From an uncultured archaeon (GTDB lineage: Archaea; Asgardarchaeota; Jordiarchaeia; Jordiarchaeales; Jordiarchaeaceae): a DNA stretch of 12,132 bases. Where the stretch lies: the NCBI GenBank assembly GCA_964510585.1, contig CAZECW010000148.1, forward strand, positions 1 through 12,132, given 5' to 3'. Shown here piece by piece: positions 1 to 12,132 of the stretch. Numbering within the stretch: position 1 is the stretch's first letter; each line of letters starts with the position of its first letter. The position numbers and the translations under genes were made by a program. A model generated the notes under the pieces. That model worked only from the letters and a program-made list of their open reading frames with translations. It was not told the DNA's origin and ran no database searches.

Positions 1-11
1 ATCAGCAGGGT

Positions 12-146
12 CAGCAAAACATAAATGGGCAGGATGAGAATAACAGTTTGGAGTAGTGTTTCTGGCATTTTTATCACTAGTTATTTACTTGCAGAAGCAC
101 TACTCCAATTTTTCGGTTCAAATTGCACCAGAAACTTTTTATGCCC
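12..146 (+). repeat. Copy 1 of a >=135-bp hairpin-containing non-coding repeat; inverted partner at 11996-12132
   Basis: Manual alignment to the reverse complement of 11996-12132 gives about 112 matches over about 138 columns (~80%). Shared blocks include CATAAATGGG, TGAGAAT, TTGGAG, ATCACT, GAAGCACTACTCCAAT, TTTCGGTTCAAA and AAACTTTTTAYGCCC. Internal stem 48-64/92-108. Confidence 0.93.
130..142 (+). promoter_or_regulatory. Candidate archaeal BRE/TATA promoter (AGAAAC-TTTTTAT) for the dehydrogenase-ior-acd operon, lying inside the repeat end
   Basis: Purine-rich run followed by a T-rich TATA-like box about 80 bp upstream of the first start codon. It resembles AGAAGAC-TTTTATA upstream of the thiolase gene (minus strand, 10445-10458). 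Confidence 0.45.
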
Positions 147-207
147 TTTGCCAAAAAATATTTCTTTAACGTTTCTAATTGAATTATAAAGGATTTCTAA
201 CTGTTTT

Positions 208-212
208 GGAGG
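208..212 (+). promoter_or_regulatory. Shine-Dalgarno GGAGG
   Basis: GGAGG lies 8 nt before an in-frame TTG at 221, which supports 221 rather than 179 as the start. Confidence 0.7.
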
Positions 213-220
213 AATCTTGG

Positions 221-1192
221 TTGGGTAAAAAGCTTCTGGTTACGGGTATGGATTTTCTTCTGGATTGGGTTAAGCAGCATATAAAGAGTGCGGAAATAGT
301 TTGTACTTCTGATGTTTCTGAGGAGAATCTATGCCAGATGGTTAAGGATGCTGATGGAATACTGTACATGCAGGCTTTGAGTTATCCCATTACTAGGAAA
401 ATTATTGAGTCTGGTAAAAAGTTGAGGTTCATAAGTTCGGCGGGTGTGGGTTATGAACGCATCGACGTTAAGGCTGCCACGGATAATGGGGTAGTGGTAA
501 TGAATATGCCTGTGGGTACAACTGTGTCTGTGGCGGAACACACTATAGCTCTGATACTTGCGTGCGCAAAGAATCTGGTCAAGGCCCACGAAAACGTGGT
601 TAAAGGAGGATGGAGACTTTTAGCTATGGGAGTTGAATTGTGGAATAAGACTCTGGGAATAATTGGTTTTGGCAGAATAGGAAGAGAAGTGGTTAAAAGG
701 ATGCGGGGATTTGAGATGAATATCTTAGTGTACGACCCATACGTGAAGGAGGATGAAATCAAAAATTTGGGGGGCAAAAAAGTGGACTTGGAAACGCTAC
801 TTAAGGAATCAGATGTAGTCTCGATACATTCACCCTTAACCAAAGAAACCGAGGGACTAATAGGCGAGAAGGAACTGGGACTAATGAAGCCAACAGCTAT
901 CATGGTAAATACCGCCAGGGGGGAACTAATAGACGAAGATGCGCTTATTAAGGCGTTAAAGGAAAGGCGGATAAGCTACGCGGGTCTAGATGTTTTTCGA
1001 AATGAACCCATAAACAAGGATAATCCCCTACTCACCTTGGACAATGTGGTTCTGACGCCGCACATGGCGGTTCAAACATTCGACGCGGTAGTGAGAATGA
1101 TGAATCAAAATGGTATCCAAGTCGAAAAAGCTTTAAACGGAATTTATGAAAATGTGGTAAACCCCGAGGTTTTAACGAAAATGAAAAAATAA
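221..1192 (+). CDS. NAD-dependent D-isomer-specific 2-hydroxyacid dehydrogenase (SerA/glyoxylate reductase-like, no ACT domain)
   Basis: Motifs GVGYERID, SVAEH, Rossmann GIIGFGRIG, YDPY, and the catalytic Arg-Glu-His set in NTARG, LDVFRNEP and TPHMA. Start moved from TTG179 to TTG221 because of the SD. Confidence 0.9.
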   Translation: MGKKLLVTGMDFLLDWVKQHIKSAEIVCTSDVSEENLCQMVKDADGILYMQALSYPITRKIIESGKKLRFISSAGVGYERIDVKAATDNGVVVMNMPVGTTVSVAEHTIALILACAKNLVKAHENVVKGGWRLLAMGVELWNKTLGIIGFGRIGREVVKRMRGFEMNILVYDPYVKEDEIKNLGGKKVDLETLLKESDVVSIHSPLTKETEGLIGEKELGLMKPTAIMVNTARGELIDEDALIKALKERRISYAGLDVFRNEPINKDNPLLTLDNVVLTPHMAVQTFDAVVRMMNQNGIQVEKALNGIYENVVNPEVLTKMKK

Positions 1193-5204: not shown

Positions 5205-6158
5205 CTAGCTTAGGGCACTCATTATTATTCCCGCTAATTCTTCTCTTGGGGGCTGTTTTGCTATTAGTTCTTTTAGTTTTGGCCCTATTTCTTCCGGCTT
5301 CCAGAATCCTGGTGGAGAGCGTTTCACGGGTTCGCTGGATTTCCAGCTGTGCAGCAGCCACATGTTCCCGCCAACCACTCTTATAACTTGGCCGGTTACA
5401 TCTTTAGCCTCGTCGGAAGCTAGGTAAACCACAAGGGGAGCCATAGCTTCGGGACTCAAGACGTCGTATCCATACTTCTTTTCGAAATCCTCCTTAGTTC
5501 CCATCATAGGAGCCAGTGAGGGCGTTGCCTCGGTTGTTAGTCTGGTTCGGGCAACAGGTACTATAACATTGGCTGTTACCCCGTATTTCGCCATTTCTTT
5601 GGCCACTATGAGGGTAAAGGCGGTTATTCCGGCTTTCGCGGCTCCGTAGTTGCTCTGACCTGGATTATATAGTAGTCCAGCGTCGGAGGTGGTGTTTATT
5701 ATTCTTCCTGCTACGGGTTTTCCTTCTTTGGACTGGGCTCTCCAGTAGTTGCAGGCGTGTCTGGTGCAGTTGAATGTTCCCTTGAGGTGAACCCCTATTA
5801 CTGCGTCGAAATCTTCCTCTTCCATGTTGAATATCATTTTGTCTCTAAGGATTCCCGCATTGTTGACCAGTATGTCCAATTTGCCAAAGGTGCTAATGGC
5901 TTGATCAATTATTCTTTTTGCTCCCTGGAAGCTTGTGACGCTCTCATAGTTGGGGGCGGCTTCCCCTCCCATCTTCTTGATTTCGTTTACTACGTCGTCG
6001 GCTGGACCGTGGAACTCGCCTTTTCCATTGTGGCTTCCGCCCATATCGTTTACTATGACTTTTGCTCCGTGTTTTGCTAGAAGTAGGGCTTCTTCTCGTC
6101 CTAAACCTCTTCCAGCGCCAGTAACTATAGCTACTTTACCTTTAAGTGATATTGGCAT
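5205..6158 (-). CDS. Short-chain dehydrogenase/reductase, MFE-2 (3R)-hydroxyacyl-CoA dehydrogenase / PRK07791-like
   Basis: TGAGRGLG, VIVNDMGG, LVNNAGILRD, VHLKGTF, RIINTTSDAG, GQSNYGAAK. SD GGTGA at 6166-6170 (minus strand), 7 nt before the ATG. Confidence 0.88.
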   Translation of the reverse strand: MPISLKGKVAIVTGAGRGLGREEALLLAKHGAKVIVNDMGGSHNGKGEFHGPADDVVNEIKKMGGEAAPNYESVTSFQGAKRIIDQAISTFGKLDILVNNAGILRDKMIFNMEEEDFDAVIGVHLKGTFNCTRHACNYWRAQSKEGKPVAGRIINTTSDAGLLYNPGQSNYGAAKAGITAFTLIVAKEMAKYGVTANVIVPVARTRLTTEATPSLAPMMGTKEDFEKKYGYDVLSPEAMAPLVVYLASDEAKDVTGQVIRVVGGNMWLLHSWKSSEPVKRSPPGFWKPEEIGPKLKELIAKQPPREELAGIIMSALS

Positions 6159-10604: not shown

Positions 10605-11108
10605 CTACCAAATCTTTTTTTCATATTTCAGAGTGCGTTTAATTCTAGATTTTTTTTGCATTTTTGCTAGTTCTTTCTCAAAGTCTTCAATTGATAGGAG
10701 GCTATCCACGCTGTCCTTTAGAGCTTGGGGAATTGGCTGCCTGTAGACGTAGTATTTTCTGACGTCCTGTACGATTCTTTTTGAGCGTTCTGAGAGAATT
10801 GGAGCGTAACGGTAAAGTGCATCATTCTCTTCCTTATCCACAACGAAACTAAGTGTACCGATGCGCTCTTTTCCCCTAGCTTTCTCATCGGGAATGGAGA
10901 AATAATACACAAAAGCGCTCTTCTGTTCCTCTTGAATGGGAATTATGGATTCCCCCTCATCCACATGGTGACTTAAAGCAACCGCCCCAATCATTGTCTT
11001 CAAAGCAATTTTATCAGCAGTCTCCTTTTCGATTCCCTTAAAATAAACACTGGTGGGACCAACATCCTCGTCCACAATGGCCAGACAGATTCCCCTTTTT
11101 TCAAACAA
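10605..11108 (-). CDS. Small uDENN/longin-domain protein (folliculin/SMCR8 N-terminal-like), putative Asgard eukaryotic signature protein
   Basis: N-terminal beta-strand followed by VDEDVGP (the FxxxxGP motif of uDENN domains), and YYFSIPDEKARGKERIGTLSFVV, matching the DxxARGxxR motif of the FLCN/SMCR8 longin domain. Basic C-terminal tail. Recognised by motif recall, not by search. Confidence 0.7.
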   Translation of the reverse strand: MFEKRGICLAIVDEDVGPTSVYFKGIEKETADKIALKTMIGAVALSHHVDEGESIIPIQEEQKSAFVYYFSIPDEKARGKERIGTLSFVVDKEENDALYRYAPILSERSKRIVQDVRKYYVYRQPIPQALKDSVDSLLSIEDFEKELAKMQKKSRIKRTLKYEKKIW

Positions 11109-11239: not shown

Positions 11240-11995
11240 AGCATATACTATAACAAGTCTATTCATAGTGTTAGGATAAACTATAAACACATTTAAAAGG
11301 GTTAACATCCCCTCTGCTTAATCTACGCACTACACATAAGATTAATCATTGTTCTCTAATCTTGAAATATGCGTATTTTCCTTTTGCTACAGTAAAAATA
11401 TCAATTTATGATATGAGTTGAGAGAGAACAAAAATTACTTATTAATAATTGTTGGTAATCCATTAGCTCTGCTTAATTGTTCATCTAAAAAGTTATTAAT
11501 AGTCATAATTGATGCTTCTCACAACTTATTTAGGATTTTTCTCTAAAAAGATTTAAGTTTTTGAATCAAAACGGGCGTAAAACCTTTCTTTTTTGGCTCA
11601 TTTTTGTTTAAGGAGCTTTTTCTTTGCATAAATTGTTCAAAAACTTATCAAAAATATATTTATTTAAGTAGTTACTCAGTTGAGGGTTGCTTTATGCGCG
11701 GATTGCACCTGTGGCAATGTGAACTCTAAGTTTTTACCCTGAATTGGTAAAAACAGGACATTTTGTTCCCATTTCCCAAAAAATGAGAAAAAAAGATTAA
11801 AATTAGAAAAAATAAGGCAAAAAAGTCAATCTACCACAACCTCCACACAAAAAACTACCCAACCGTATAAGTTCTATTATTATCTGGATTTTCGATTACA
11901 GCAGCGAATTAGGTTAAAAACACCAAACAATTTAATTGGATTCTACATCGTCTATTATTGAATTTTATAGTGAAAATACATAATTACGAAAAATT
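11240..11995. other. Long AT-rich gene-free intergenic region
   Basis: No ORF of 60 aa or more in the six-frame track. Many A/T runs; contains short palindromes and repeats. Confidence 0.75.
11730..11754. other. Perfect 9-bp hairpin (possible terminator or protein-binding site)
   Basis: GTTTTTACC-ctgaatt-GGTAAAAAC. Confidence 0.5.
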
Positions 11996-12132
11996 GGGCG
12001 TAAAAAGTTTTTAGTGCAGTTTTGAACCGAAAGATTGGAGTAGTGCTTCAGCACAAAGTAGTAACAGTGATCAAAATGACAGAAGCACCACTCCAATTGG
12101 TCATTCTCACTCTACCCATTTATGCTTTACTA
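11996..12132 (-). repeat. Copy 2 (inverted) of the hairpin-containing repeat; runs to the window edge
   Basis: The reverse complement aligns to 12-146 at ~80%. Internal stem 12097-12082/12049-12034. Confidence 0.93.

Follow-up and report, generated by a model that had tools for sequence, protein, structure and literature searches.

The window analysed here is a whole contig of 12,132 nucleotides (G000:C148) from a 3.78-Mb, 217-contig archaeal genome with 42% G+C. It begins and ends with copies of a repeat of ~135–146 nt in inverted orientation, each of which contains a long hairpin. The locus therefore poses a two-part question: what does the repeat belong to, and in which molecule, and on which strand, does its hairpin act?

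A sequence-only reading had described the hairpin on one strand of each copy, and we recovered the same pairs. In copy 1 (hereafter copy A), positions 48–64 pair with 92–108 over 17 bp, with a T59/G97 wobble on the plus strand, a bulged G65 and two further pairs, 66/91 and 67/90. In copy 2 (copy B), 12097–12082 pair with 12049–12034 on the minus strand over 16 bp. Copies A and B have the same arm, GAAGCACTACTCCAA, and ATCACT is retained in their loops. Folded as RNA on these strands, copies A and B gave -27.2 kcal/mol (z = -7.3) and -27.1 kcal/mol (z = -4.5), respectively, and none of 200 shuffles was as stable in either case. The complementary strands fold too (z = -6.1 for copy A and -4.3 for copy B), and with DNA parameters all four strands give the hairpin (z = -4.4 to -7.5). 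The window hairpins are far beyond chance.

Nine copies of the repeat are present in the genome, each at a contig end with the same end outward, and all nine share a sharp inner boundary (...CTTTTTAYGCCC). On three contigs the sequence continues outward for 83–104 nt. These extensions are mutually 100% identical, which, together with the placement at contig ends, shows that the repeat borders a longer multi-copy unit at which the assembly broke. Eight further contig ends begin with the same 23 bases inverted and represent the other end of this unit. A CRISPR leader or rRNA-operon flank at the contig breaks was rejected, as the outward extension holds no repeat unit and continues as an open reading frame (ORF). 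Repeat families terminate most of the 217 contigs (one at 78 ends, another at 50, several at 8–9), and mobile elements account for almost all of the fragmentation of the assembly.

The 11 genomes of the class yielded no full-length copy. Complete elements came only from a metagenome scan with a pattern across the terminus and the stem, which returned 17 contigs, two of them with complete elements: L177 (1880 bp), which has the sequence of copy A, and L175 (1876 bp). Both carry 23-bp terminal inverted repeats (GGGCGTAAAAAGTYTYTDGTGCA), with the left-end sequence inverted at the right end. The L175 transposase ORF contains two in-frame stops, at codons 182 and 292. The flanks of this element form no duplication, and its contig is therefore probably chimeric, joining different copies.

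The 1880-bp element contains a single ORF of 537 codons, without accessory tnpA or tnpB. This ORF, together with its ATG and an SD-like motif, lies on the strand opposite to the one on which the hairpin had been described, and had been overlooked there. Its 537-aa product matches Pfam DDE_Tnp_IS66 (PF03050) at 89.2 bits (E = 4e-25; cut-off 23.1). Ten relatives were found in the database, two of which are named ‘IS66 family transposase [Candidatus Freyarchaeota archaeon]’; PF03050 is present in all nine strong matches, and the DETG and NxxE motifs are invariant among the relatives (alignment A3). The Freyarchaeota names, the presence of PolD in the genome and matches to Ca. Jordarchaeia contigs, from a scan whose 15-base pattern otherwise gave mostly chance hits, mark the host as an Asgard archaeon of Jordarchaeia/Freyarchaeia type. 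The corresponding ORF of L178 has 532 codons, and the copy B transposase has the same start. Between subfamilies, protein identity is 57–62% and DNA identity ~70% overall; in a sliding profile the left end stands at 0.8 against about 0.7 for the remaining element, a slight excess only. Classic IS66-family terminal repeats are about 15–30 bp long and start with GTAA, and the 23-bp repeats found here begin with GGGC ahead of GTAA. The element is a single-ORF, ISBst12-like insertion sequence (IS) of the IS66 family.

Two other identities were considered and rejected. A TnpB omega-RNA scaffold at the right end of an IS605 element is ruled out because no tnpB adjoins the repeat, the five PF07282 matches of the genome lying elsewhere, and because the repeat coincides with an IS66 gene's 5' end. 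An IS5/DUF4096 element, a reading based on a C-terminal WKTVY motif, fails because PF13340 is absent from the genome; the three PF01609 matches lie in other contigs, away from the repeat.

The two window repeats are thus the left ends of two separate 1.88-kb IS66-family copies, both truncated by the contig ends. Copies A and B are 81% identical and belong to different subfamilies. Each has its own 8-bp target-site duplication (Table 1), and the same bases adjoin a matching right end on contig C129 for copy A and on contig C158 for copy B. Two relatives preserve the empty site (G003:C21 and G004:C181): there the C129 flank lies ~100 nt from the window flank, and the IS is absent. The separate duplications and the 81% identity rule out a composite transposon. 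What appeared to be non-coding inverted repeats around a 12-kb metabolic block are two ordinary, independent IS insertions that broke the assembly, and the block between them forms no composite unit.

Some features of this block were recorded in passing. A 167-aa ORF (10605–11108, minus strand) gives a weak Folliculin N-terminal (longin-type) Pfam match (27.3 bits, E = 3.8e-6), a eukaryote-like trafficking domain that is expected for an Asgard archaeon. A 2-hydroxyacid dehydrogenase gene starts ~75 nt from IS copy A (window 147–225), with the IS upstream. Its start codon is TTG in the window and ATG in sister genomes, and outward transcription from the end of copy A would enter this gene.

Read on the coding strand, from window position 146 to 1, the left end of copy A comprises the terminal repeat (element positions 1–23), a 15-nt spacer, the 5'UTR arm of the hairpin, a 27-nt loop and the coding arm, in that order (Table 1). 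The conserved loop motif ATCACT is the complement of the SD-like AGTGAT, and the transposase ATG follows five or six bases further on. A gene at 6158 (minus strand) in the window is preceded by a GGTGAT-type SD at similar spacing. The two extra closing pairs of copy A involve two start-codon bases, U and G. Two to five of the bases neighbouring the ATG are paired, and C126-subfamily copies pair five around it. All subfamilies have the hairpin at the same position with respect to SD and ATG, and the arm motif occurs once in the element, being absent from the right end and elsewhere.

Table 1. Coordinates of the left-end features of IS copies A and B in the window
Feature	Position	Strand	Basis
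Left terminal inverted repeat, copy A, 23 bp, GGGCATAAAAAGTTTCTGGTGCA	124..146	-	Sharp copy ends; inverted in the right ends of L177 and L175
Target-site duplication, copy A, 8 bp, TTTGCCAA	147..154	.	Same bases at C129 right end
5'UTR hairpin arm, copy A, TTGGAGTAGTGCTTCTG, element positions 39-55	92..108	-	Folds; alignment
27-nt loop, copy A: AGTGAT 78->73, A5 spacer, ATG 68->66	65..91	-	Sequence; L177 ORF
Coding hairpin arm, copy A: last two bases of codon 2 and codons 3-7	48..64	-	
First 22 transposase codons, copy A (MPETLLQTVILILPIYVLLTLL...), running off the contig	1..68	-	Identical to L177 ORF start
BRE/TATA-like GCAAAAC-ATAAAT, candidate antisense promoter (putative start about 48-50)	14..26	+	Inferred only
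Target-site duplication, copy B, 8 bp, GAAAAATT	11988..11995	.	Same bases at C158 right end
Left terminal inverted repeat, copy B	11996..12018	+	Subfamily 81% identical to copy A
5'UTR hairpin arm, copy B	12034..12049	+	
Loop, copy B: SD-like AGTGAT 12066-12071, ATG 12076-12078	12050..12081	+	Sequence
Coding hairpin arm, copy B: codons 3-7 and first base of codon 8	12082..12097	+	
First 19 transposase codons, copy B (MTEAPLQLVILTLPIYALL), running off the contig	12076..12132	+	Start as in L178 ORF

To follow the stem across copies, 20 distinct left ends were collected from this genome, four sister genomes and metagenome contigs, and 16 of them were aligned. Over the 17-pair structure, 86.8% of the cells in the 16 copies are standard pairs, as against 28–43% when the partners are slid by 1–3 columns, and none of 500 shuffles reached the observed pairing or covariation score; these statistics are inflated by kinship, as the aligned copies come from one archaeal order and only four pairs covary. 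Those four core pairs have changed on both sides (AU/GC, GC/UA, CG/UA and UA/CG). In the coding arm the encoded amino acids vary (ETLLQ, EATLQ, EAPLQ, EELLQ) while the pairing stays, so that pairing outweighs protein sequence there. All copies that start with the gene's ATG fold at -19 to -28 kcal/mol on both strands. The sequence-only reading had hinted at a single-stranded function for the hairpin and had called for more copies and a covariance model. Because diverged copies retain the stem through changes on both sides, the best reading is indeed a single-stranded (RNA) role. When the class's 11 genomes were searched with a covariance model derived from the alignment, no additional matches appeared.

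A different picture emerges from derivatives that have no gene. A relic in G005 has no ATG and five broken pairs, a miniature derivative (MITE) in G010 has three broken pairs, and a relic in G003 has lost the 5'UTR arm entirely. The stem is tied to the gene: gene-less derivatives lose it or are without it. A MITE of 223 bp (G000:C120:2053-2275) retains ~26 nt from the left end, together with about 36 nt from the right, and is flanked by an 8-bp duplication, AAATTCGA. The family to which it belongs (also C44:3727-4143 and the ends of C202 and C145) shares the 23-bp terminal repeats and contains neither hairpin nor ORF. These MITEs have transposed, and the hairpin is thus dispensable in cis for transposition.

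Two types of shortened or altered left end were noted alongside. Two internal partial copies (G000:C113:54883-54938 and C43:4454-4511) comprise element positions 1–58 only, from the terminal repeat through the 5'UTR arm. In the relic L209 (G003:C33:10174-10258) the 5'UTR arm has changed from GGAGTAGTG to GGGGCGGCG, and its four differences are all A-to-G or T-to-C on one strand.

The MITEs bear directly on a role of the hairpin at the DNA level in transposition, whether as a subterminal binding site for the transposase or a host factor, as a cruciform or as an HUH-type end hairpin. Such a role would fit the folding of both strands as single-stranded DNA (z = -4.4 to -7.5) and the location of the structure 38 nt from the element tip. 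It is nevertheless very improbable, given that the arm motif is missing at the right end and in the remaining element and that MITEs retaining just ~26 nt at their left end have transposed. Elements of the HUH type (IS200/IS605, IS91) have HUH/Y1 transposases and hairpins at both ends, and they lack terminal inverted repeats and target duplications. The HUH version, which the sequence-only reading had raised, is largely refuted: the enzyme is a DDE transposase of the IS66 family, the element has 23-bp terminal inverted repeats and 8-bp duplications, and the hairpin is found at one end only.

It could also be argued that the hairpin is a functionless quasi-palindrome, carried along by an active IS and kept near-perfect by template switching or gene conversion. 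The C126 subfamily (C126, C22, C77, L174 and L176) has four polymorphic sites, all within the hairpin region (element positions 39–99) and in mixed combinations, while the next 83 nt are identical. This pattern suggests inter-copy recombination or templated mutation within the palindrome and fits the quasi-palindrome explanation, as does the tolerance of both kinds of single stem mismatch among the aligned copies. Against it stand the fixed position of the hairpin relative to SD and ATG in all subfamilies, the persistence of the stem over about 25% nucleotide divergence, and its decay in gene-less relics, which templated repair alone would not predict. We regard this explanation as unlikely.

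A third possibility is that the stem and an adjoining T run form a transcription stop, which would limit read-out from the IS into its neighbour or the reverse. Copy A fits this description, its stem being followed by TTTTT at 109–113. The T run is not conserved, however, as other subfamilies have TCTTTC or CCTTTC at this place, and no T-rich stretch lies beyond the stem in the other direction; a terminator has, in our estimation, scarcely any chance of being the explanation.

The most likely role is RNA-level control of transposase translation, through the mRNA, an antisense RNA or both. About half of our confidence goes to a cis-acting RNA hairpin that the tnp mRNA would form where translation of the IS66-family transposase begins. 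In this mechanism, an mRNA stem of -20 to -28 kcal/mol would close immediately after the AUG and in part over it, the small ribosomal subunit would rarely gain access, and transposase would remain scarce; we infer this lowered access from the anatomy described above. The mirror-image hairpin on the other strand may additionally form the body of a small antisense RNA.

Several points weigh against the cis hairpin. The SD-like motif lies in the 27-nt loop, outside the stem, so that its sequestration would be indirect, and in the G004 subfamily the motif is degenerate. In three of the five subfamilies the mRNA strand has A.C mismatches at positions where the other strand has G.U. In addition, template-switch repair of quasi-palindromes could mimic compensatory change.

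The question of the strand was first raised by the wobble pairs. Both stem substitutions between the window copies are G-U compatible only on the strand opposite to the gene, as the sequence-only reading had observed; this polarity does not extend to the element at large, and it is opposite in the C126/C22 subfamily, which makes up five of the nine copies in the genome. Counted over copies that still begin with the gene's ATG, in-stem wobble intermediates number 4–5 on the antisense strand and 3 on the mRNA strand. Confined to the antisense strand are A.C at pair 8 (two subfamilies), C.A at pair 12 (two subfamilies) and C.A at pair 11 (G004 type); confined to the mRNA strand are U.G at pair 13 (C126 type), G.U at pair 11 (L181) and a terminal U.G (G004 type). 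Likewise, the fold is more stable on the antisense strand in three of five subfamilies and on the mRNA strand in two, with the C126/C22 subfamily and L173 folding better as mRNA.

The antisense-strand majority in both comparisons would fit an RNA of ~90 nt that starts at the base of the hairpin and blocks transposase translation in trans, an explanation that we hold as tentative. A BRE/TATA-like box inside codons 13–19 would serve as its promoter, and the RNA would run outward and end at a T5 run (136–140) within the terminal repeat. Its loop would be complementary to the SD and AUG of the mRNA of every copy, and the block would scale with copy number. The box, GCAAAAC-ATAAAT, places a TATA-like element ~25 nt upstream of the stem base, and ATAAAT is invariant wherever a copy still begins with ATG. 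A similar box, GCAAAA-YTAAAAAT, lies upstream of two tRNA-Val genes in the same genome; introns limit the tRNA genes that ARAGORN and Rfam find there to 7–9. In several archaea, antisense RNAs covering the 5' ends of transposase genes have been documented (PMC6523106).

Codon conservation points in the same direction. Synonymous sites were compared at the 194 codons whose amino acid is conserved among four full-length copies: within codons 3–16, 8 of 10 are identical, compared with 41% gene-wide, the top value of 185 windows. The conserved codons (ATT CTC ... CCC ATT TAT), read on the opposite strand, correspond to GCAAAAC-ATAAAT, and conservation over the first 20 residues far exceeds that of the remaining protein. 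At the sequence level, this conservation is suggestive of a constraint beyond the mRNA hairpin.

The protein segment concerned is itself unusual. Residues 1–23 of the transposase (L177:1515-3128, minus strand) are hydrophobic and membrane-anchor-like (LLQTVILILPIYVLLTLLI) and are followed by a very basic stretch; such conservation of an N-terminal segment relative to the remaining protein (alignment A3) is uncommon for a transposase. Overlapping constraints from RNA or a promoter, as opposed to protein function, may account for it. Under the antisense reading, the hydrophobic N-terminus would be largely a by-product of these constraints, which we consider possible yet doubtful.

Other observations speak against the antisense RNA. 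The promoter was called from sequence alone, and a k-mer scan of upstream regions returned AT-richness only, with no local promoter consensus. The invariant codons could also reflect protein selection or early-codon usage. A loop of 27 nt is unusually large for loop-initiated antisense pairing. Rfam, a search that the sequence-only reading had proposed, gave no match in the window at E ≤ 1 and only a chance-level match for the full element. The cis hairpin and an antisense RNA would in any case be compatible, by analogy with IS200.

Start-site hairpins in insertion sequences are textbook knowledge. Davis, Simons and Kleckner reportedly described in 1985 a fold-back inhibition of read-through transcripts in IS10 and IS50. 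The element described here resembles these two in its DDE transposase, in a proposed control at the ribosome-binding step and in an outer-end stem-loop over the SD/AUG region. It differs from IS10 in belonging to another IS family and another domain of life, and in IS10 the 5' end of the mRNA pairs with the antisense loop. Antisense control of IS10 by RNA-OUT and RNA-IN goes back to Simons and Kleckner (1983, as cited in PMC4513863).

The closest parallel in arrangement is IS200, whose left end combines a stem-loop in the tnpA 5'UTR with the antisense RNA art200 (Ellis et al. 2015, PMC4513863). A second left-end inverted repeat of IS200 hides the SD and inhibits 30S binding, and this same repeat serves both cis and antisense control (PMC4513863). 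Both elements have a left-end inverted repeat within about 140 nt of the tip and a stem-loop at the translation start of the transposase. IS200, however, is an HUH/Y1 element without terminal inverted repeats, whereas the Jordarchaeia element is of the DDE IS66 family. In IS200 the SD lies inside the stem; here the SD-like motif lies in the loop, and the stem uses codons 2–7. Control of IS200 has been studied in bacteria, whereas the present hairpin is known from sequence and its host is an archaeon.

In ISPpu9, the structure in the transposase 5'UTR includes the ribosome-binding site, and a complementary antisense sRNA exists (PMC8450116). That antisense RNA opens the structure and helps translation, so that for the element described here an antisense effect could in principle have either sign.

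Among IS66 elements, the ISBst12 group (ISDge4, PMC12898284) shares with the present element a single IS66 DDE ORF, 8-bp direct repeats and imperfect terminal inverted repeats. The terminal repeats here start with GGGCGTAA instead of the GTAA or GTGA of the ISBst12 group. A further distinction is the conserved hydrophobic N-terminus of the transposase, and the family has so far been seen only in Jordarchaeia and Freyarchaeia. Our literature search found no paper on a hairpin of this kind, at the start codon, for IS66-family elements or for Asgard archaea.

Taken at its simplest, the window documents an active, lineage-restricted IS66-family element in Jordarchaeia and Freyarchaeia. This genome contains at least nine copies and a sister genome 14–15; there are at least three subfamilies as well as MITE derivatives. 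Single-ORF, ISBst12-type IS66 elements with 8-bp repeats are already known (PMC12898284), and the hairpin is an expected kind of feature. Its transposase-proximal inverted repeat includes the start region, with the ATG at the top of the stem and the SD-like motif in the loop, which by its layout places the structure among the start hairpins. The element thus carries the same kind of start-site hairpin that restrains the bacterial IS200 and IS10. If the antisense reading were true, this would be an archaeal counterpart of RNA-OUT and art200, and for both Asgard archaea and the IS66 family it would be the first description of a riboregulated insertion sequence. If control is shown experimentally, a classic bacterial device for taming transposons would extend to the archaeal relatives of eukaryotes.
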